DNA of 64,000 bases from Candidatus Enterousia sp. GTDB taxonomy: Bacteria; Pseudomonadota; Alphaproteobacteria; Rs-D84. The stretch is from NCBI GenBank assembly GCA_045546075.1, contig JAZQCF010000008.1, positions 17,137-81,136 of the forward strand. Reading direction: 5' to 3'. Below, piece after piece: positions 7,012-63,809 of this stretch. Position numbers and translations under genes: made by a program. The notes beneath the pieces are model-generated. The model searched no databases, was not told the origin of the DNA, and saw nothing but the letters and a program-made list of their open reading frames with translations. Each line of letters begins with the position of its first letter. Within the stretch, counting starts at the first letter, position 1.

Positions 7012-8086
7012 TTAATATCCACCTTGCAACAGACTTAACATAAAACCGTCCAAATCCCCATCCAACACGGCCCCAGAATCCGCTGTTTCAAATCCGGTGC
7101 GAACGTCTTTGACCAACTGGTACGGATACAATACATAGTTTCGAATCTGGCTGCCCCACTCAATTTTTTTCTGGGCGGCCTTGGCGGCATCTTCTTCGGC
7201 GGCGCGTTTTTTTAATTCCAGTTCATACAATCGCGACCGCAGCATTTTCATCGCCATATCTTTGTTTTGAAATTGGCTGCGTTCGTTTTGGCACGTAACG
7301 ACAATTCCGGTTGGAATATGGGTTATACGAACGGCACTGTCGGTTTTGTTTACGTGTTGCCCGCCCGCGCCCGATGAACGATATGTGTCAATGCGCAAAT
7401 CTTTATCATTTATTTCAATTTGTATGGAATCATCAACATCCGGCCACACGTCCACAGACGCAAAACTGGTTTGGCGTTTGCCGTTCGCATTAAAAGGCGA
7501 AATTCGCACCAACCGATGCACCCCGATTTCATTGCGCAACCATCCATACGCGCGTTCGCCGACAATTCGCATTGTAATACTTTTTATTCCCGCGGTGTCG
7601 CCTTCGTGTTCTTCAACCACCTCTACCGCAAAGTTATGGCGTTCGGCCCAACGGGTATACATGCGGGTCAGCATTTGCGCCCAATCTTGGGCCTCGGTTC
7701 CACCGGCACCGGCCTGGATAAACAAAAATGCGTCGTTGCCGTCCGCCGGATTACTGAACAAAGTAATATATTTTGCGTGTTGCACGCGCGCCGCCAATTT
7801 TTCAATGCCGTCTATGACATCGGCATCATCGGGGGCAATCGCATACAGTTCGGCAATGTTTTTATATTCATCATCCATCGCGACAAATTCGTTCAGTTCG
7901 CGTTCCAATGCGGATTTTTTCTGTAATAACGCGCGTGCCGCGTCCGGGTTATCCCATAAATCGGGGGCCAAAGATTTTTCTGTTATATCGGCAATTTGTT
8001 CCCGTAATTTATCGGGGTCAAAGAAACCCCCGAATTGCAATCAGGTTATCGTTGATTTCATTCAAAACTTCGTTTGGTAAAATCAT
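7012..8086 (-). CDS. prfB: Peptide chain release factor 2, with programmed +1 frameshift
   Basis: Frame 0 reads MILPNEVLNEINDNLIAIRGFL and stops at TGA (8018-8020). The +1 frame continues DPDKLREQ...GAGGTEAQDW...SGAGGQHVNKTDSAVR (GGQ motif). Confidence 0.92.
8017..8031 (-). promoter_or_regulatory. RF2 autoregulatory frameshift site
   Basis: GGGGG T TT CTT TGA C: an internal SD-like element upstream of the CTT-TGA-C slippery site. Confidence 0.85.
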
Positions 8087-10047: not shown

Positions 10048-10077
10048 TTTGGAATAAAAACCGATTCGTGTTATAAT
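10048..10077 (+). promoter_or_regulatory. Promoter of paralog F1
   Basis: TTTGGA, 18-nt spacer, TATAAT. The spacer and start region (CCGATTCGTGTT...GAACCAAT) are homologous to the promoters at 18033 and 51494. Confidence 0.5.
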
Positions 10078-10146
10078 GCGTTGAACCAATTTGAGGATTT
10101 TGGCTCACAGTGATTAAGACTCATACAAAAGAAAGGAGAAACCACT

Positions 10147-10971
10147 ATGAGAATCAAATCCTCGATAATGATTGGTGTGCTGGTGTCGGTTATGACATTA
10201 TGCGCGGCATTCGCGGACAGCGTTGTTACATCCAAATCATATGTTGATGCGCAAGACGCATTAAAGCAAGATAAAATCACCGCCGGGACCAGGGGCAGTG
10301 TTGTTACATATGCAGGCGAGGTTGGTGGTTATGCGCAATTTGGTGAGATGCGGGTTAATGATAGTTCTTTTGAGTTAGGTTCAAGTGTTAACGAGCTGGC
10401 TACGACTGGTCTATTGGTACCTCCGTATCAGCTTTTAGAAGATATAAGTGTAATCAATTCTAATGAAGTTCTCGTGCGTGCTGTACATGCTGGTGGGTCT
10501 TATGTTGAAGGTTTGGCGATTTTTTCGTCGGACGGGACATATAACGCCGGTACAGATGCCGATAAATTGGCAACAATGGGCGCGGTAATGGCCAGTATGG
10601 CGGCATCCGGATCGCAACCGGCATTATCCGGAACCAATGGTGCAATCGTCACATATGGTAATGCCCCCGGCGTGACGGGTGAGCGTAAGATTTTGTCAGA
10701 ATGGTATCAACCATTCGTTCCAGGCGTAACCGCAGGCAATGGCGATCATCTTGTTGATGCACAAAGTGTGATGGGTGTTGTATACACCATTGGAAATCGA
10801 CCCATCAGCGTGATGGAATGTGCGGATGGTGAAAATGTATCGGATGAGGACTGTATGTTGTGGCATATTTCACAAAGACACGTCTTATCATGGCCATCAA
10901 ATGCTGGTTATCAACGCTCTCCGTTTATCAATAGTAGTGAATTCCCATCATATGAACCGTATAATCCATAA
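10147..10971 (+). CDS. Secreted YVD/CLLW-family protein, paralog F1 (274 aa)
   Basis: Signal peptide ending AFA, then TSKSYVDAQDALKQDKITAG..VVTY, TMGAV, and C-terminal CMLW. Confidence 0.7.
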   Translation: MRIKSSIMIGVLVSVMTLCAAFADSVVTSKSYVDAQDALKQDKITAGTRGSVVTYAGEVGGYAQFGEMRVNDSSFELGSSVNELATTGLLVPPYQLLEDISVINSNEVLVRAVHAGGSYVEGLAIFSSDGTYNAGTDADKLATMGAVMASMAASGSQPALSGTNGAIVTYGNAPGVTGERKILSEWYQPFVPGVTAGNGDHLVDAQSVMGVVYTIGNRPISVMECADGENVSDEDCMLWHISQRHVLSWPSNAGYQRSPFINSSEFPSYEPYNP

Positions 10972-16790: not shown

Positions 16791-17975
16791 TTATTTACCG
16801 AAAATCATAACCATAATATTTTTCCACGCGCGTCCAAAGAATTGAATTTTTGACACTTTGTTTTTCGCAACCAGTTTTCCACGCGCAATCACGCGCCCAT
16901 TTTGTTCTGCGATAATTTCGCCCAACGTGTCGCCAACGCGTACCGGCGCGGCAACCGGGTCATTGTATCGTGCCAATACACGCACCCCGCGTAAACCGGC
17001 ATCTTTGCCGGTTGTAACCGCAAATGTCTTGTCAACGGTTGCAACAACGGTGTCCGCCCGCCCGTACCAAACGGGCACATTTGTCACATCGTCGCCCGGG
17101 CGATAGAACACGCGTGTTGCGGTGGTTGTGAACCCGTGGGTCAGCAATTTTTTCATCTCGGCCGCCAACCCATCGTGTCCTTTGCCGTTAAATCCGTTTA
17201 TAACCCCGATTAAGCGACGACCGCCGGATGTGGCACTGGCCACCATACCATAGCCGCCTTTGTCCGTATGCCCGGTCTTTAATCCATCCGCCCCCGGCAT
17301 AATAAACAGCAATTTATTATAGTTCACTGTATGTGTCCGTCCCCAATCGCGGCACCAATCGGTCTTATAATCATTAAATTCAAACCGTTTCGTTGCGAAC
17401 ATAGGGTATAAATCCGGATAGTCTGCGATTAAATGATACGCCAGTGTTGCCAATTCCCGACTTGTCATCAAATTGTTTGGATTGGGCAATCCCGACGCAT
17501 TCCCAAATGTAGATTGTGGCATACCGATTGCGCGCGCCTTGGATTGCATCATTTCTGTAAATTTAACCTCGGTCCCCGCCAAAGATTCGGCAACAACAAC
17601 GGATGCATCACCCCCAGATAAAACGATTAATCCCAAAATCACATCACGCACACTAATTGTTTGCCCGGCGGACAGGCAAATCTTGCTTGCCGGGTACCAT
17701 TCGGGTTTTTGATAGTCCGCATTTTCGCCAACGGTTAATTTATCGTCCAAGGACAGTTCGCCGGATTTAATTTTATCGAACAACACCGCCAACGTCATCA
17801 GTTTCAGCATCGAAGACGGTGGCATCAGTGTATCGGCCGCCTTGGTCACAATTTCGGCACCGGAATCATAGTCAATTAAAAACGCGGATTTTGCGGTTGT
17901 CTTGAATTCTGCCGCGCCCGCGGTCGTGGTTGCGGCAACGATAAACGATAAAATCGTGGGATAAATCTTTTTCAT
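16791..17975 (-). CDS. D-alanyl-D-alanine carboxypeptidase (PBP5/6-like, peptidase S11)
   Basis: Signal peptide, SSMLK (SxxK) and KTGHT motifs. Confidence 0.85.
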   Translation of the reverse strand: MKKIYPTILSFIVAATTTAGAAEFKTTAKSAFLIDYDSGAEIVTKAADTLMPPSSMLKLMTLAVLFDKIKSGELSLDDKLTVGENADYQKPEWYPASKICLSAGQTISVRDVILGLIVLSGGDASVVVAESLAGTEVKFTEMMQSKARAIGMPQSTFGNASGLPNPNNLMTSRELATLAYHLIADYPDLYPMFATKRFEFNDYKTDWCRDWGRTHTVNYNKLLFIMPGADGLKTGHTDKGGYGMVASATSGGRRLIGVINGFNGKGHDGLAAEMKKLLTHGFTTTATRVFYRPGDDVTNVPVWYGRADTVVATVDKTFAVTTGKDAGLRGVRVLARYNDPVAAPVRVGDTLGEIIAEQNGRVIARGKLVAKNKVSKIQFFGRAWKNIMVMIFGK

Positions 17976-18032
17976 ACCTTTATCATAACAACAAGATTTT
18001 TCATTTCAAACAGATTTTTTATAAAAATGCGC

Positions 18033-18062
18033 TTGACCCCGATTGTGCATTTTTGATAAAGT
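18033..18062 (+). promoter_or_regulatory. Promoter of leader copy 1 / F2
   Basis: TTGACC, 18-nt spacer, TAAAGT. Homologous to 23943 and 51494. Confidence 0.55.
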
Positions 18063-18067
18063 GTATT

Positions 18068-18290
18068 TGAACACGGATGGGAATCCGGTTCGGGGCCCTG
18101 AGAAGCCCATACTATCCGGTGCCAAGGACATCGTAATTCCACGATTTCCATTTTTTGGCATCGATATATTCCCCGAATTTGTTGGTTCGGGGTGCGGTGG
18201 TTATATAACAGGCATTGCCGAAGCCCACTGGGATTACTGATAGTATGATTTCTCAACGCCCCGACCGTCATTTCCATTGACGGTTCTTTT
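18068..18290 (+). promoter_or_regulatory. Structured 5' leader copy 1 (candidate riboswitch/attenuator) with terminator 18264-18290
   Basis: One of three homologous leaders with covarying hairpins (18119-18161, 18171-18192). An antiterminator segment overlaps the terminator ACCGTCA...TGACGGT-TCTTTT. The TSS is inferred. Confidence 0.6.
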
Positions 18291-18318
18291 ACACCAAAAT
18301 GGAAAGGGGGAGTACACA

Positions 18319-19074
18319 ATGCACAAAAAATTACTGTTCGGTTTAATCGGCGCGATTGTTGCAACAAACGCATTTGCGAACCAAATTGTCACAAGTCAAA
18401 CATACGTTGATAATATGGACGCATTAAAACAAGATAAAATTACCGCCGGTACCACAGGGGCGGTTGTCACATATAATGGCGAGATAGACGGTCAGGCACA
18501 ATTCAGCGAGCAGGCGATTTATGATGGTACAACAACATATGATGCCACGACAGATGCGAATAAACTTGTTACCGCCGGGGCGGTATCAAATATGGCACCG
18601 GCATTACCAACCGGAACGGCAAACGCCGCGGTTACATACGATGCCAACGGTAATATTGGCGGCGAACGGGGGATTTGGTCCTATGATTATCAATTTTATG
18701 GAGGCAGTGTCGACTATATGCAATCTTTTAAAGATAATTTAACTACGCTCGATAGTGTTAGAAGCGCGCTAGATTATGTGTCAACGGATATAACCAGTGT
18801 TATGCCGAATGGGGATAGTGCAACCAGAATGCTACCGGTGTTTAGGAACGACTATGATTCGCAGTATTCTAATAAAGATAAGTTTTGGAAAGTGATGATT
18901 ACAAATTCAATCAACGGGGAAAATAAGTGGGATACGTATAATTTAATTCCAAGTCTTATGGCGGTAAATGCGGGGTTGGATACCAAACAATCCAAAAAGG
19001 TTTGTGTCCGTTGGTTGCCAGATGTCGTCGAACAAACGGATGAAACCTGCCTGTTGTGGGATTTGCCGGACTAG
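18319..19074 (+). CDS. Secreted YVD/CLLW-family protein, paralog F2 (251 aa)
   Basis: GGGGGAG RBS, signal ending AFA, VTSQTYVDNMDALKQDKITAG..VVTY, TAGAV, C-terminal CLLW. Confidence 0.7.
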   Translation: MHKKLLFGLIGAIVATNAFANQIVTSQTYVDNMDALKQDKITAGTTGAVVTYNGEIDGQAQFSEQAIYDGTTTYDATTDANKLVTAGAVSNMAPALPTGTANAAVTYDANGNIGGERGIWSYDYQFYGGSVDYMQSFKDNLTTLDSVRSALDYVSTDITSVMPNGDSATRMLPVFRNDYDSQYSNKDKFWKVMITNSINGENKWDTYNLIPSLMAVNAGLDTKQSKKVCVRWLPDVVEQTDETCLLWDLPD

Positions 19075-21029: not shown

Positions 21030-21068
21030 AATCTTAAAAATCCGCGACTGCGGATTTTTTGATTTTAT
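21030..21068 (+). repeat. 39-nt direct repeat (copy 1) containing a terminator hairpin
   Basis: AATCTTAAAAATCCGCGACTGCGGATTTTTTGATTTTAT is identical to 21202-21240. Confidence 0.85.
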
Positions 21069-21201: not shown

Positions 21202-21240
21202 AATCTTAAAAATCCGCGACTGCGGATTTTTTGATTTTAT
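21202..21240 (+). repeat. 39-nt direct repeat (copy 2)
   Basis: Identical to 21030-21068. Confidence 0.85.
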
Positions 21241-23942: not shown

Positions 23943-23971
23943 TTGACCGGGATATGCGTTTTTGATAGAAT
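23943..23971 (+). promoter_or_regulatory. Promoter of leader copy 2 / F3
   Basis: TTGACC, 17-nt spacer, TAGAAT. Confidence 0.6.
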
Positions 23972-23977
23972 AGCAAA

Positions 23978-24190
23978 TGAATCGGATGGGAATCCGTTTC
24001 GGGGCTGTAGCAGGCCTATGTGTATCCGGTGCAATGCATCGTAATCCGTTGCGATTTCCGTGTTTTTGCACCGCAATATTACCCCAATAGTGGTTGGGGT
24101 GCCGGTGGTGTATATATAAATATCATCGGGATCGTTGATACACATGATTTGCTAACACCCCGACCGTCAATTCCCATTGACGGTTGTTTT
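23978..24190 (+). promoter_or_regulatory. Structured 5' leader copy 2 (candidate riboswitch/attenuator) with terminator 24163-24190
   Basis: Homologous to 18068-18290, with hairpins 24028-24072 and 24082-24099. A 10-bp alternative helix GGTTGGGGTG:CACCCCGACC overlaps the terminator stem. Confidence 0.6.
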
Positions 24191-24212: not shown

Positions 24213-25097
24213 ATGAGCAAAAAATTACTTTTCGCCATAATCGCGACAATTTGTACCACCACCGCATTCGCAGATTCAAAAACTATAACGACCCAGGATT
24301 ATGTAGATACAAATTTCCAAACAAAGATTCCCGCTACATCATCAGATCTTGAATGGGTAACAAAAACTTTGGTGGCAACAACGGACACCGCCGGTCAAGT
24401 TGAACAAATAGGGGTTTATAGTTCTGATCTAGAAGATTACGGTGGTAGTAGTTATTTGCCACAATACAATTTGGATATTAATAGTTTCAACATGATTAAC
24501 AATGTTATTCCTACATATGCAAGTACGTATATGGATAAAGAGCAGCTTCGGCTTGATATGTATGGGAATATGCAAATACGAATTCCCAGAAGTGGTGAAA
24601 TAGTATACGAATATGGGGTTGGCGACAATGGTCCCTATACAAGTTCGTTAACAATGACTACTTGGAATAATCCTTGGTGGTTGCGTAATGATGTCAAAGG
24701 GACCGGTTTGGTTACCAAAACAAGTACCGATGGCGGTGTTGGTGAACGTCAAATTATTGAAACGGCGGATGTTGCAAATTATGGGACCGGCACCGCCACC
24801 GAACAACAAATTCAAGAAATATCTATTCCCACAATGGGGGCGGTTATGGCGGCAATTTCAAATAATACCCCCTCATTACCAACGGGGACGGCGGGAAATG
24901 TCGTCACATATAACGCATCCGGTCAAATCGGTGGTTCGGTTGCAACATATAACGGTTCGACCACATACAACGCATCAACCGATGCATCGAAAATCGCGGT
25001 TATGTCCGCGGTGCAACGCAAAATGACCTGTGCGCAGTATGTTCAAAATGCCGCAGAAACACCGGAAAACTGCCTGTTATGGAACGTGCTAGATTAA
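24213..25097 (+). CDS. Secreted YVD/CLLW-family protein, paralog F3 (294 aa)
   Basis: Signal ending AFA, TTQDYVDTNFQTKI, NVVTYNASGQIGG, TMGAV, C-terminal TC...NCLLW. Confidence 0.7.
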   Translation: MSKKLLFAIIATICTTTAFADSKTITTQDYVDTNFQTKIPATSSDLEWVTKTLVATTDTAGQVEQIGVYSSDLEDYGGSSYLPQYNLDINSFNMINNVIPTYASTYMDKEQLRLDMYGNMQIRIPRSGEIVYEYGVGDNGPYTSSLTMTTWNNPWWLRNDVKGTGLVTKTSTDGGVGERQIIETADVANYGTGTATEQQIQEISIPTMGAVMAAISNNTPSLPTGTAGNVVTYNASGQIGGSVATYNGSTTYNASTDASKIAVMSAVQRKMTCAQYVQNAAETPENCLLWNVLD

Positions 25098-51493: not shown

Positions 51494-51525
51494 TTGACCC
51501 CGAATCGTGTTTTTTGTTAGAATGT
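51494..51525 (+). promoter_or_regulatory. Promoter of leader copy 3 / F4-F5
   Basis: TTGACC, 18-nt spacer, TAGAAT. Confidence 0.6.
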
Positions 51526-51531
51526 ATTTGA

Positions 51532-51730
51532 ACCAATGGGAAGCCATTCTCGGTTCGGGCTGTCGTAGGCCCACATCTTGGACGGCACACAATTTTTTTG
51601 GGTGTGCCAAATACCCCGCCTGTCGGGGTGCCGATGGTTATAATGCGCTGTCAAAAGGCCTATCGGGATCAACTTCCAAGATGTGATTTACGAACACCCC
51701 GACCGTCTGTTTTCCACGACGGTTTATTTA
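51532..51730 (+). promoter_or_regulatory. Structured 5' leader copy 3 (candidate riboswitch/attenuator) with terminator 51702-51730
   Basis: Homologous to copies 1 and 2, with compensated hairpins 51584-51608 and 51614-51628. GTCGGGGTG:CACCCCGAC is an alternative helix. The terminator is ACCGTC...GACGGT-TTATTT. Confidence 0.6.
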
Positions 51731-51774: not shown

Positions 51775-52329
51775 ATGAAAAATTCCAAAATTCTATTATT
51801 TGGCGCGGTGGTGTCGGTATTGACATCGGGCGCATTTGCCGCAACAACAACCCAAACCGTCACGACCCGGGGTTATGTTGATACCGCGGTTGCGACCAAA
51901 CAGAATAAATTATCCGGCACGTCCGGTTATGCCGTCACATACGGCGCAAGCGCGGGTACAACGGATGAACGGCAAATCGTAACATCACTTGGGTCGGACA
52001 CGACGGCGACGACATTGCCGACAACGGGCGCGGTGGTTGCGGGCCTGAACGCTAAACAAAATACATTAAACGGCGCGGCAAACAGTGTTATTACATATAC
52101 CGGCACGGCGGGCGGCACCGGTTCCAAGGGTGTGTACCAGGCATCAGGTTCGTATTCATCCCAAACAAACAATTTGGCCGAGGCCGGACATGTAAACACG
52201 GCGGTTGCGAACGCGTTTAATGCACATTTAACATGCAATACATACGCAACGCCGGGTGATAGCAGCAGTGATTGTTTGCTCTGGAATGTGAACAATTTGT
52301 CGGGCACATATATGCCAGAGAATCAATAA
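51775..52329 (+). CDS. Secreted YVD/CLLW-family protein, paralog F4 (184 aa)
   Basis: GGAG RBS, signal ending AFA, TTRGYVDTAVATKQNKL, AVTYG, TTGAV, LTC...DCLLW. Confidence 0.7.
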   Translation: MKNSKILLFGAVVSVLTSGAFAATTTQTVTTRGYVDTAVATKQNKLSGTSGYAVTYGASAGTTDERQIVTSLGSDTTATTLPTTGAVVAGLNAKQNTLNGAANSVITYTGTAGGTGSKGVYQASGSYSSQTNNLAEAGHVNTAVANAFNAHLTCNTYATPGDSSSDCLLWNVNNLSGTYMPENQ

Positions 52330-52425
52330 CCGTCATACCGATGTAAATCGGTATCTTGTCGGTTCAAGATGCAGATAGGGTATCAGGCGGTTGCAAAGAG
52401 ATCCCGTGTCAAGCACGGGATGACG
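52330..52425. repeat. MITE-like palindromic element between F4 and F5
   Basis: CCGTCATACCGAT-GTAA-ATCGGTATC ... GATCCCGTG-TCAAG-CACGGGATGACG. The termini match the GTCAT(A/C)CCG arms of the GIY-YIG cassette, and it starts at the first nt after the F4 stop. Confidence 0.7.
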
Positions 52426-52442
52426 AAAAAAGGACAGAGAAT

Positions 52443-53459
52443 ATGAAACTATCAAAATACGGTTTTAATGTTGCATTGGCTTTATTATTGGTGCCAGGAA
52501 TTATAGGTTCTGCATTTGCTGACACGGGCACAATAACCAGTCGTGAATATGTTGATGATTTGTTGGATACCAAACAGGCGCAAATTCCTGCATTAAACAC
52601 GAACACAATTGTTACATATGGCACAAGCGATGGAGTGATTGGTCAACAAACGATAGTAACCGCGCTGGGGACGGACGCAACGGCGACAACATCCCCAACC
52701 GCTGGCGCAGTGAATACCGGATTAAGTGCAAAACAAAATATAGCGAACGGTACGGCGAACTATGTTATGACCGGCACCGGCACCGCCGGCACACTCGGCG
52801 AAAAACCGGTCTACAGCGCGACAACAAACTACACAAATGCCTTGGTGACGGCACAAACAATCAACACCGCCGCCATGGACGCCGCCAACAGTGAACTGAC
52901 CTGTATCGATAACGATTGCCTGCTGTGGCAGATTCGCACCACAACCCCATCCGGCCTATCCATACGAATAGATTTTAATCCAGACACAAGTATTAGCGGG
53001 ACATCTGTTTGTTGGCGTAATTTATCTAATGAAGGAAACTATGCAAATTACGATGGTACATGCAGCGCATCAACATTATCATATATTGGGGCCAGTGGAA
53101 GCAAAAGTGGCAAATGGGGGACAGTATTTTCGTATGGAGACGTTAGCGGGATAAGTGTGTGTAGTTCAACAACAAAAAATTCGGTGGGGACAATAGTTGC
53201 CACGGATGCACAGGCAGCGGTATTAGACAGTGAGTATCTTGCACAAACGGGTATCGGACTCGGTGATACGGAATTAAATACAAATTACCATTGTTGGTGT
53301 AAAATGGAAAATCCCGGAACTTCAAAATGGATTTATGTACGGACTTTGAACTATGGTGGTACCAGATGTTCCGATATATGTGTAAATGATTGCGCGCGCG
53401 ATGTACGGGACAATAGTAGTGGCAATTTTAGGACAACCATGTATGGCACGATAAATTAA
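52443..53459 (+). CDS. Secreted YVD/CLLW-family protein, paralog F5 (338 aa) with extra Cys-rich C-terminal domain
   Basis: Signal ending AFA, TSREYVDDLLDTKQAQI, IVTYG, TAGAV, LTC..DCLLW, then ~170 additional aa. Confidence 0.7.
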   Translation: MKLSKYGFNVALALLLVPGIIGSAFADTGTITSREYVDDLLDTKQAQIPALNTNTIVTYGTSDGVIGQQTIVTALGTDATATTSPTAGAVNTGLSAKQNIANGTANYVMTGTGTAGTLGEKPVYSATTNYTNALVTAQTINTAAMDAANSELTCIDNDCLLWQIRTTTPSGLSIRIDFNPDTSISGTSVCWRNLSNEGNYANYDGTCSASTLSYIGASGSKSGKWGTVFSYGDVSGISVCSSTTKNSVGTIVATDAQAAVLDSEYLAQTGIGLGDTELNTNYHCWCKMENPGTSKWIYVRTLNYGGTRCSDICVNDCARDVRDNSSGNFRTTMYGTIN

Positions 53460-63029: not shown

Positions 63030-63644
63030 TTAATTTGCAACATTCCATAACAAGCAGTTTACGTCGGTATGGTCGGCACCATCCACCCATTGTGCACAGG
63101 TCATTTTATTTTGTTTGGAACTTATTGCTGTATAAACAGCGCCATCGGTTGGAATATCGGTCCCGCCATTTGCAACGGTGGTTACGATTTTCTTAACCCC
63201 CGGTTCACCCACACCAATGCCATATGTCACCAATGAACCGTTCGGATAAGCTGTTTCGTTATTTTTCCTAAGAGAATCTTGTTTATTTCTCCACAAATCC
63301 TCTATCGCATCCGCCACCAGTGTAACAGTTGGCACAACGGTATCGTAATCCCGACCTTCAGTTTCTTTATCTAAAAATCTTAATTTGGATTCATTGAATT
63401 CCTCTACTGTATAACTGTCCAAAATACCAATTTTGTTTCCTGTTAATTCCCCGTCATAATAAGAAACCAACGCAGGCAATGAATCATAACTTGTTTCAAC
63501 ATAGCCCGTTGTGATTTTATCTTGTTTTGTTTCCAGCGCGTTATCAACATATTGTCGTGATGTCACGGTTGATGTTGTATCTGCAAAAACTGAATTTATC
63601 GCGATTATTGATGCGATTGCACCAAGTAATAATTTTTTGCTCAT
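63030..63644 (-). CDS. Secreted YVD/CLLW-family protein, paralog F6 (204 aa)
   Basis: AAGGGGAA RBS, signal ending VFA, VTSRQYVDNALETKQDKITTG, LVTYG, TDGAV, KMTC...NCLLW. Confidence 0.7.
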   Translation of the reverse strand: MSKKLLLGAIASIIAINSVFADTTSTVTSRQYVDNALETKQDKITTGYVETSYDSLPALVSYYDGELTGNKIGILDSYTVEEFNESKLRFLDKETEGRDYDTVVPTVTLVADAIEDLWRNKQDSLRKNNETAYPNGSLVTYGIGVGEPGVKKIVTTVANGGTDIPTDGAVYTAISSKQNKMTCAQWVDGADHTDVNCLLWNVAN

Positions 63645-63674
63645 ATATTCCCCTTTATTCCTATGGTTAAAAGT

Positions 63675-63702
63675 GTAACAAAAACGAACGTTTTTTGTAA
63701 CC
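63675..63702. promoter_or_regulatory. 27-nt palindromic site 1 upstream of F6
   Basis: GTAACAAAAACGAACGTTTTTTGTAACC, near-identical to 63783-63809. Confidence 0.4.
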
Positions 63703-63782
63703 AGTCTAAAATGAATTTTTGTCAATTAAAAATGGCGGATTTCTGCCATTTTCTATAATTTGAAAAACATCAAAAAAACACT

Positions 63783-63809
63783 GGACAAAAACGTTCGTTT
63801 TTTGTGACC
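63783..63809. promoter_or_regulatory. 27-nt palindromic site 2 upstream of F6
   Basis: GGACAAAAACGTTCGTTTTTTGTGACC, 108 bp from site 1. Confidence 0.4.

Follow-up and report, generated by a model that had tools for sequence, protein, structure and literature searches.

The window analyzed here is a 64,000-nucleotide (nt) stretch of DNA from Candidatus Enterousia sp. (contig JAZQCF010000008.1) that carries three homologous RNA leaders upstream of genes encoding surface-protein paralogs. The data indicate that the structured leader family is real and strongly supported, and that it is likely to function in attenuation. Judging from the sequences, each leader is probably a regulated, cis-acting transcription attenuator of the riboswitch type, gating read-through into the surface-protein gene. 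In addition, the leaders represent a new and enlarged form related to sRNA-Xcc1 (RF02221), an RNA family that is catalogued but mis-scoped.

The leader family and its fold

A preliminary description of this DNA had reported three homologous leaders. Alignment of the three window copies gave a mean column identity of 73%, and a covariance model (R1; 236 positions, built from 39 relatives including the three window copies) detected exactly three matches in the window, the remainder scoring 12 bits or less with filters off. The R1 scores of the three copies (Table 1) are partly circular, because the copies were in the R1 training alignment. Folding z-scores against dinucleotide shuffles were -6.3, -6.3 and -5.3 for copies 1, 2 and 3, respectively. 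The promoters, TTGACC-N17/18-TA(A/G)A(A/G)T, were found at the sites given previously, all of them with a TG-extended -10. The terminator lies 27-50 nt from the start codon, with signal-peptide genes downstream in all three cases; its distance from the ribosome-binding site (RBS) is ~10-35 nt, shorter than the 25-45 nt first proposed. A promoter scan of the three window copies detected no second promoter-like site between terminator and start codon. Because orientation and spacing are fixed and leave no room for a second promoter, the downstream genes would depend on read-through. No upstream open reading frame (ORF) is conserved, as previously suggested: frame and length of the short ORF differ among the three copies, and the ATG of the ATGGGAA block sits in the loop of the 5' hairpin H0, where most relatives lack it. 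Leader-peptide attenuation was dropped on these grounds.

A single metagenome pattern scan demonstrated at least 58 distinct family members with R1 scores of 62-200 bits, and members with the complete architecture are present on termite-gut, rumen and human-gut contigs. The pattern used (TGATTTNNNNAAC...) holds one N more than the window form and matches the commoner TGATTTT form. The set is a lower bound, and all of its matches have the 3' strand C2 (see below) as CCCCGACC, which biases statements on C2 variation. Mean column identity across the family alignment is 49%. All members carry a promoter of their own along with a conserved terminator. In 46 of the 58 members listed, a same-strand ORF preceded by a Shine-Dalgarno sequence starts within ~175 nt, mostly within 80 nt, and 10 of the remaining 12 have a contig end within ~140 nt. 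At least 30 of the 46 downstream ORFs (about 36 by eye) have signal-peptide-like N-termini. The downstream proteins are mutually unrelated (8% column identity) and include autotransporters, proteins with Chlamydia PMP repeats, outer-membrane (OMP) beta-barrels, proteins with List-Bact repeats and Cys-rich secreted proteins, as well as a few cytoplasmic proteins such as an HTH regulator. The family is therefore not tied to one surface-protein paralog group, as had been thought, and precedes many unrelated genes.

At orthologous loci in related metagenome-assembled genomes (MAGs) the leader is kept with compensatory changes. At one locus (L030) the ortholog is 54% identical and the promoter is kept, with the leader absent. 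A related-locus search with a 13-sequence alignment returned 18 loci, of which two carry the leader. On viral contigs a loose hairpin-C pattern returned 120 loci and the covariance model matched none of the first 100 (0/100; L254-L273 left out), a result that says nothing on phage carriage. We also noticed a divergent subfamily whose members are shorter (~150-190 nt), may have or lack the hairpins P2/P3 and score only 19-27 bits with R1; one contig (L101) carries a divergent copy ~1 kb downstream of a canonical copy.

Helices were assigned by RNAalifold on a MAFFT alignment and by pair counts on the model alignment, and two of them, PK1 and P1, were spotted by inspection. Checked on this larger set of homologs, covariation supports eight aligned helices, one of them a pseudoknot, and an alignment-free test supports P1 as the ninth. 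The conserved core defined by covariation consists of a 5' domain (H0, H1, P2 and P3) and a 3' three-way-junction domain (the helix G2:C2 and hairpin C), joined by P1 and PK1. Across the family, both partners have changed in 8 of the 9 H0 pairs, and covariation is also seen in P2 and at the P3 apex. In PK1 the H1 loop, nUnAGAAA, pairs with UUUCUnA downstream of UGAUU, and columns 45-47/480-482 hold AU, CG, GC and UA with zero unpaired cells. P1 joins the hypervariable stretch after H1 to the hypervariable stretch before UGAUU; in the alignment-free test the mean cognate duplex was -8.7 kcal/mol versus -1.2 kcal/mol for non-cognate strands, and the cognate partner was strictly best in 50 of 57 sequences. 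Paired cells amounted to 94.8%, compared with 80.9% in shuffles and 36-48% with the partners slid. Changes on both sides were seen in 36 of 49 pairs, and none of 500 shuffles reached any of these measures. The covariation of H0 and PK1 is independent of the alignment, because neither was in the aligning model, and frequent G-U pairs in H1, P2 and PK1 fix the transcribed strand. Four unpaired blocks are conserved: AUCC (between P2 and P3), GGGnUCAuu, UGAUU and AAC. The internal loop of hairpin C, UAUAnAACA / GAA, is common to sRNA-Xcc1. In leader copy 3 a single hairpin replaces P2/P3.

Several sequence blocks recognized in the preliminary description find their place in this fold. The ATGGGAA block is present and corresponds to the GNRA loop region of H0. 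The 'GGGC-loop-GCC' hairpin is real (H1), and its loop additionally pairs with the UUUCUnA after (A/G)TGATT to form PK1, which had gone unnoticed. The blocks GGTGC(C/G)G(A)TGGT and (C/T)GGGAT are also present but are not separate elements, being the two strands of hairpin C. What was called hairpin A in copies 1 and 2 is resolved in the family consensus into two hairpins, P2 and P3; it may arise when the 5' arm of P2 pairs instead with the 3' arm of P3.

Other pairings were considered. A helix P5 (GGUCA/UGAUU), a candidate counterpart of the local third hairpin in the sRNA-Xcc1 junction, can form and varies only by pairing-keeping transitions; it is incompatible with P1 and PK1, both of which are far better supported by pair counts and, for P1, by the alignment-free test. 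Minimum-free-energy folds of single sequences pair GGGGC of H1 with GCCCC of C2. This pairing was rejected, because H1 covaries with its own 3' arm while C2 is constant, and a kissing or coaxial G1:C2 reading was rejected on the same evidence. A hammerhead or other ribozyme core was dropped, there being no motif and no Rfam match. As a separate observation, the P3 apex is a GC-rich hairpin between an A-run and a U-run, for example GGCGCGGAAUGCGCUUUUUGUUUU in the family (e.g. L053 1426-1671) and CCAAC-CCCGUCAGU-GUUGG-AUUUUUU in Escherichia coli (L274 ~2418-2445); it looks like an internal intrinsic terminator within the leader.

Competing strands and proposed mechanism

At the level of sequence, the G2 strand (CGGGG) has two exclusive partners, C1 in hairpin B and C2 downstream, both with compensatory support. 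The earlier description of hairpin B, of the C(G/A)CCCCGACC segment and of the terminators is borne out, and the terminator stem does begin with ACC, the last three bases of that segment. All members inspected form hairpin B (-7 to -15 kcal/mol), which occurs in compensated variants: CCCCAA/UUGGGG (copy 2), CCCAGCC/GGUUGGG, CCCUGGCCG/CGGUUGGGG and CUCCUUGGUC/GGCCGGGGAG. In the divergent subfamily C1, G2 and C2 shift jointly, from CCCCGAC/GUCGGGG/CCCCGAC to CUCCAAC/GUUGGAG/CUCCAAC, and the pair flanking G2:C2 (x:x') stays G:C or U:A. In the family this flanking pair is UA in 23 cases, AU in 20, GU in 6, UG in 3, GC in 2, CG in 1 and UU in 1, a variety that makes selection for the G2:C2 helix unambiguous. 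Predicted energies in the window copies are -11.2 to -13.5 kcal/mol for hairpin B, -16.2 to -18.3 kcal/mol for the full G2:C2 helix (10 bp and -18.3 kcal/mol in copy 2) and -9.1 to -12.6 kcal/mol for the terminator. The full G2:C2 helix of 9-10 bp takes (G)ACC, which is the base of the terminator stem beside the U-run. The window leaders end in a GACCGUC...GACGGUU hairpin and a U-rich run, and ~54 of the 58 relatives listed end in GGCGGUUUU; a GC-rich hairpin followed by a U-run is the form of an intrinsic terminator.

Two general features of riboswitches are found here. The 5' untranslated region (UTR) contains a conserved, structured domain with covariation, and at the level of sequence the expression platform is exclusive with helices of that domain, through the competition of C1 and C2 for G2, the 3-4 nt overlap with the terminator and, in E. 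coli relatives, an RBS-proximal mimic (see below). One conserved core combined with two platforms resembles riboswitch families, and a regulated cis-attenuator is therefore ranked first.

We propose that hairpin B forms first during transcription and holds G2. The core, comprising H1/PK1, P1, hairpin C and G2:C2, would then set the outcome. If the core is not stabilized, C2 would remain free, the terminator would be completed and an RNA of ~220 nt would be released, making OFF the default state. If the core is stabilized, C2 would displace C1, and G2:C2 would extend over ACC and block the lower terminator stem; in this ON state RNA polymerase would read into the gene. The E. coli design described below would likewise be ON when the core holds the P1 and PK1 3' strands. 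As to the effector, our best guess is a small molecule or second messenger, although a protein or, in trans, the released leader itself could take that role instead. The gene context offers no candidate ligand.

Several observations weigh against such an attenuator. The downstream genes suggest no metabolite, and the expression platform is nearly invariant in the 58 members listed, which fits an sRNA gene equally well. A strict terminator scan was passed by copy 2 only. Copies 1 and 3, with 8-9 bp stems followed by CUUUU or UUUAUUU, fail the U-count or stem rule of the scan because their U-runs are interrupted. The three-way exclusivity of hairpin B, G2:C2 and terminator originally claimed holds up and gains covariation support, with one amendment: a 6-7 bp G2:C2 core is compatible with the terminator. 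Indeed, RNAfold of the 3' module shows the G2:C2 core and the terminator coexisting in copies 1 and 3, so that competition rests on the extension of 3-4 bp. This is where the model is weakest. For the ACC extension, covariation is visible only in the small divergent subfamily, because the search pattern fixed C2 as CCCCGACC. Furthermore, base pairs are far more numerous in the terminator-containing fold than in the ON fold, and hence the ON state would need a strong stabilizer. Finally, P1/PK1 and G2:C2 may either coexist in a pseudoknot or belong to alternative global folds.

Relation to sRNA-Xcc1 and alternative explanations

A scan of the whole window at the Rfam gathering threshold placed no family on the leaders, and at E <= 10 copies 1 and 3 gave nothing relevant, the sRNA-Xcc1 model included. 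T-box, c-di-GMP-I/II and other Rfam cis-regulatory families showed no match to the window leaders or their relatives, where all hits were noise except sRNA-Xcc1. The initial statement that the leaders belong to no known riboswitch class thus holds at Rfam thresholds, but a catalogued distant relative exists. With the RF02221 model, six of nine consensus-like relatives gave sub-threshold scores of 33.6-41 bits over their 3' 90 nt (gathering score 53), whereas true members score 69-78 bits. Detection is reciprocal: R1 picks up true Xcc1 loci, although with weak scores (L153, 21.9 bits, E = 3e-6; L152, 17.7 bits, E = 5.7e-5). The junction is the same in both, and the cmscan and cmsearch alignments match it column by column: the GC-rich closing helix of sRNA-Xcc1, GgCcGGggG / CccCCgGcC, equals G2:C2, its hairpin with the AUAnAAnA / GAA loop equals hairpin C, and behind a UUUnnAAC joining strand comes a hairpin that shares part of its 5' arm with the closing helix.

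We compared RF02221 loci from E. coli prophages, Aeromonas, a Desulfovibrio plasmid and Neisseria. All eight have an H1-type hairpin whose loop complements the joining strand, beginning ~115-150 nt upstream of the Rfam model start, and a P1 5' strand that complements the loop of the model's third hairpin. The upstream H1 loop and P1 5' strand covary from locus to locus, so that true Xcc1 loci also carry H1, PK1 and P1 outside the Rfam model. This 5' part is covered by no Rfam family. Since it is common to the RF02221 loci and uncovered by Rfam, RF02221 represents the 3' core of a longer leader. A BLAST search with the Aeromonas Xcc1 locus against plasmid records revealed no sequence-level conservation of the 5' domain; the shared architecture is seen through complementarity. 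The window RNA shares the whole architecture of full-length RF02221 leaders, and both sit just upstream of a same-strand ORF. The Rfam model and the label 'trans-acting sRNA' appear to under-describe RF02221 as a cis-regulatory element.

sRNA-Xcc1 is a discrete 88-nt RNA with its 5' end at G2 (PMC2996969). Published accounts present it as a trans-acting sRNA of Xanthomonas campestris that is carried by integrons, transposons and plasmids, and it has elsewhere been reported upstream of symE and ORF6N genes. Our literature search found no description of a longer structure or cis role for Xcc1, nor of the conserved sequence strings. Unlike sRNA-Xcc1, the window family has a larger 5' domain (H0, P2, P3), a C1 decoy hairpin in every member inspected and an intrinsic terminator instead of RBS-proximal duplicates. 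It occurs in chromosomal housekeeping neighborhoods of uncultured gut Alphaproteobacteria and precedes surface or outer-membrane proteins, not antirepressor, symE or ORF6N genes. With the Rfam model the window copies have E > 10 and the relatives stay below 53 bits.

The RF02221 element is found in 150 of 5426 complete E. coli genomes (~3%). Six E. coli loci were examined, and in each an antirepressor gene (ant or antA/antB) begins 25-40 nt downstream of the element. In all five E. coli leaders inspected, a second copy of the H1-loop and P1 5' sequences stands directly ahead of the Shine-Dalgarno sequence. The three copies covary, and the best partners of the core strand are the 5' module and the RBS-proximal copy of its own locus. 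The platform of the E. coli prophages is thus predicted to sequester the RBS instead of terminating transcription. In none of the three leaders of the window is a downstream copy of the H1 loop or P1 5' strand present (-1.7 to -5.9 versus -7.7 to -13.1 kcal/mol). We also noticed that in one E. coli locus (L276) a C4 antisense RNA (RF01695, 74 bits) at 56-141 precedes an ORF6N pseudogene, behind which come the Xcc1 leader and then ant, placing two different structured RNAs in series in one prophage anti-immunity region.

That the window leaders and the full-length 'sRNA-Xcc1' leaders make up one undescribed riboswitch class, ~230 nt long and pseudoknotted, with interchangeable terminator and RBS platforms and sensing a cellular signal, is a tentative proposal that we regard as possible rather than probable; RF02221 would in that case be a wrongly scoped and wrongly annotated piece of a cis-regulator. 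Transcriptional riboswitches, such as orphan classes and c-di-GMP-I/GEMM, resemble the leaders in having a large conserved 5' UTR fold with a pseudoknot and GNRA loops, a closing helix whose 3' strand doubles as the 5' arm of the terminator, and several copies per genome before different genes, with platforms that differ by lineage. The GEMM gene set, comprising surface, secreted and phage-related proteins, resembles that of the window family. The leaders differ in matching no Rfam riboswitch by sequence or structure, and they are unusual in their three-strand layout (C1, G2, C2), which places a decoy within the conserved region.

A second group of known systems comprises C4 of phages P1 and P7 (a1b1/a2b2), CI of P4 (seqA/seqC), CB of N15 and IsrK of Gifsy-1, in which a structured RNA of ~80-90 nt in a leader exposes two segments complementary to an upstream copy. 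In these systems, downstream expression is controlled by termination or by a translation block. In the E. coli Xcc1 leaders the two segments also complement an RBS-proximal copy, all of them covarying and locus-specific, and the association with antirepressor genes is shared. The three window leaders contain the upstream complement (P1, PK1) but no downstream target copy; they match neither the C4 nor the IsrK family of Rfam and are chromosomal, not in prophages.

These systems suggest antisense auto-regulation, in which the terminated or processed leader, or an Xcc1-like 3' core, would pair in trans with the H1 loop and P1 5' strand of nascent transcripts from the same locus and alter termination, with no ligand involved. 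Each copy has its own P1 and PK1 sequences, which pair strictly with their cognate strands in the manner of specificity determinants. The accumulation of sRNA-Xcc1 as a discrete RNA, the arrangement of the E. coli ant leaders as upstream copy, core and downstream copy with triple covariation, and the C4 RNA 560 nt upstream at one E. coli ant locus point the same way. IsrK offers a precedent, a leader-terminated RNA acting on its own read-through mRNA (PMC4825925). We consider this explanation unlikely for the window leaders, which carry no downstream copy of the H1 loop or P1 5' strand and have no match to Rfam C4. In the intact leader, moreover, the segments are already paired in cis, and a processing step is therefore required; variable, compensated helices are normal in ordinary riboswitches too.

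Rather unlikely is that the element is not a switch at all, being either a stable sRNA gene with its own terminator or a constitutive 5' structure whose leaky terminator sets low expression and protects the mRNA 5' end. The promoter and conserved terminator of every member, the cataloguing of RF02221 as a trans-acting sRNA and the terminator-containing fold, by far the most stable one, all agree with it. It leaves unexplained, however, the mimicry of C2 by C1 with the C1/G2 covariation, as well as the RBS-proximal mimic of the 5' module that replaces the terminator in relatives; orientation and spacing to the start codon are fixed, with no space for a second promoter.

We give a low probability to attenuation by a protein of the CsrA, Hfq or ProQ type, or by a dedicated antiterminator, that would bind loops or single strands and tip the balance between hairpin B and G2:C2. 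The H0 loop, often ACAGGGAUGU, resembles the CsrA SELEX consensus RUACARGGAUGU. One paralog with a short 5' UTR retains an H0-like hairpin and nothing else of the leader, the conserved joining regions AUCC, GGGnUCAuu and AAC are possible protein sites, and the surface-protein regulon has no metabolic theme. Known protein-dependent attenuators, however, do not need an RNA of this size with a pseudoknot and two GNRA loops. The core also spans Alpha-, Beta- and Gammaproteobacteria, Desulfovibrio plasmids and prophages, so that the protein partner must travel with it, and none was seen adjacent.

It is very improbable that the RNA has no function and that the leaders merely reflect duplication or gene conversion of promoter-5'-region cassettes, or a mobile repeat, as the replaceable promoter-leader-gene cassette at the dacC-miaB slot (see below) and the paralog-rich protein family might suggest: dozens of compensatory changes in nine helices with strand-specific G-U pairs, and covariation statistics from an alignment that is not one recent clone, contradict it, the element precedes unrelated protein families at constant orientation and position relative to the ORF, on which ground the mobile repeat was dropped, and terminal repeats or target duplications were not noticed, although no search was aimed at them.

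Genomic setting and significance

The features of the leaders and of their genes are collected in Table 1. Common to proteins F2, F3 and F4-F5 are a signal peptide and two motifs, T-x-x-Y-V-D...K-Q (N-terminal) and C...CLLW (C-terminal), and none of these proteins matched a Pfam domain. Homologs of the window proteins are found in rumen and gut MAGs labeled 'Alphaproteobacteria bacterium', and the window also carries ordinary housekeeping genes and TrcR.

Table 1. Leader elements, associated genes and related loci. Positions refer to the window unless a locus (L) is named; nucleotides n, x and x' vary among members.
Feature	Position	Strand	Remarks
Promoter, leader copy 1	18033-18062	+	TTGACC-18-TAAAGT, TG-extended -10
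Leader RNA copy 1, whole covariance-model match	18062-18287	+	133.3 bits, E ~4e-39
H0, 5' hairpin, copy 1	18069-18091	+	GAACACGGAU-GGGA-AUCCGGUUC, GNRA loop
H1 hairpin	18093-18108	+	GGGC / GCCC; 4/4 pairs covary
PK1 5' strand, copy 1	18097-18105	+	H1 loop, CCUGAGAAG
P1 5' strand	18109-18117	+	AUACUAUCC; partner 18237-18246
P2/P3 region	18118-18171	+	GGUG..CAUC hairpin, UAAUUCC linker, P3
Hairpin B, C1:G2	18171-18192	+	CCCCGAAUU : GGUUCGGGG; -13.5 kcal/mol; proposed anti-antiterminator
G2 strand	18184-18194	+	GGUUCGGGGUG; common to hairpin B and G2:C2; duplex with 18257-18266, -16.2 kcal/mol
Hairpin C	18194-18231	+	GCGGUGG...CCACUGG; 7/7 pairs covary
P1 3' strand	18237-18246	+	CUGAUAGUAU; -7.7 kcal/mol with own 5' strand
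PK1 3' strand, copy 1	18249-18256	+	UUUCUCAA
C2 strand	18257-18266	+	CGCCCCGACC; last 3-4 bases belong to terminator stem
Terminator	18263-18290	+	GACCGUCA...UGACGGUU, then CUUUU; -10.7 kcal/mol; stem covaries in family
Gene F2	18319-19074	+	251 aa; signal peptide; YVD...KQ N-terminal and CLLW C-terminal motifs
Promoter, leader copy 2	23943-23971	+	TTGACC-17-TAGAAT, TG-extended -10
Leader RNA copy 2	23972-24187	+	R1 133.5 bits
Hairpin B, copy 2	24081-24100	+	
G2, copy 2	24091-24101	+	
C2, copy 2	24156-24165	+	
Terminator, copy 2	24161-24186	+	
Gene F3	24213-25097	+	294 aa paralog
Promoter, leader copy 3	51494-51523	+	TTGACC-18-TAGAAT, TG-extended -10
Leader RNA copy 3	51523-51726	+	R1 88.9 bits
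Hairpin B, copy 3	51613-51629	+	
G2, copy 3	51620-51630	+	
C2, copy 3	51695-51704	+	
Terminator, copy 3	51701-51724	+	
Genes F4 and F5	51775-52329 and 52443-53459	+	51775-53459; apparently one operon
Paired-repeat regime	63674-63809	-	upstream of paralog 63030-63644; also L009-L023 ~7700-8000
Family consensus H0			GAAUCCAnn-GGGA-nnUGGGUUC, 5' hairpin, GNRA loop
Family consensus H1			GGGnC / GnCCC
Family consensus P2			often GGUGC-GAAA-GCAUC
Family consensus P3			hairpin after AUCC linker
Family consensus G2:C2			CGGGGx / x'CCCCG
Family consensus hairpin C			CCGnnGG...CCnnCGG
Family consensus terminator			ACCGCC / GGCGGU
Divergent subfamily members	L001/L007 2764-2951		
Divergent subfamily member	L011 15323-15538	-	
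Divergent subfamily member	L101 4327-4540	-	
RF02221 loci with longer leader	L274 2390-2625; L275; L276; L277; L278		E. coli prophages
RF02221 loci with longer leader	L153; L152; L151		

The window contains seven genes of the F2 surface-protein family under three upstream regimes. Most F2-family paralogs have no leader and carry instead two direct repeats of ~30 nt, ~100 bp apart, each of which holds a 20-bp palindrome (GGTCACAAAAAACGAACGTTTTTGTCCAG and GGTTACAAAAAACGTTCGTTTTTGTTACAC in the window; cores AAAAAGGTACCTTTTT or AAAAACCAAGGTTT in other MAGs). These paired palindromic repeats look like a paired operator or a DNA-level switch. In the third regime, at 10068-10146 before the paralog at 10147-10971, a short 5' UTR carries only an H0-like hairpin, GAACCAAUUUGAGGAUUUUGGCUC, directly before the RBS, so that this 5' hairpin, with GGA in its loop, may have a separate function.

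The slot between the genes for a D-Ala-D-Ala carboxypeptidase and a radical-SAM (MiaB-like) protein, 17975-19071, holds the type 1 leader and F2. In other species (L027/L029 2663-5311) the same slot is occupied by a type-3 leader with an F4-like gene and by a second gene, for a large secreted protein. The unit of promoter, leader and gene behaves like a replaceable cassette at the dacC-miaB slot. Elsewhere in the window we observed a two-piece (permuted) alphaproteobacterial tmRNA at 1533-1874 on the minus strand (168 bits), with smpB at another site in the window. A perfect 24-nt palindrome, AAAAATCCGCGACTGCGGATTTTT, flanked by A- and T-runs, occurs twice, at 21036-21059 and 21208-21231, 172 bp apart. 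Lying just upstream of a P-type ATPase gene, the pair has the appearance of repeated bidirectional terminator-like elements.

If the attenuator is as proposed, the leaders would constitute a large, well-supported orphan regulatory RNA for surface and outer-membrane proteins of uncultured Alphaproteobacteria from the rumen, the termite gut and the human gut, proteins that likely mediate contact with the host or with protists. The RNA would be linked to an already catalogued 'sRNA', which ~3% of complete E. coli genomes carry directly before prophage antirepressor genes, and RF02221 would be re-scoped from an 87-nt trans-acting sRNA to the core of a ~230-nt cis-regulator, offering in E. coli a tractable system for effector discovery. 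Should no ligand exist, the design, with its decoy, shared and terminator-linked strands and its locus-specific helices, would still be a clear example of RNA-only attenuation. If the leaders and their Xcc1 relatives do form one riboswitch class, its signal would turn on surface and outer-membrane proteins in gut Alphaproteobacteria and antirepressor or toxin genes in mobile elements, and one signal would control both prophage antirepressors and the surface proteome.

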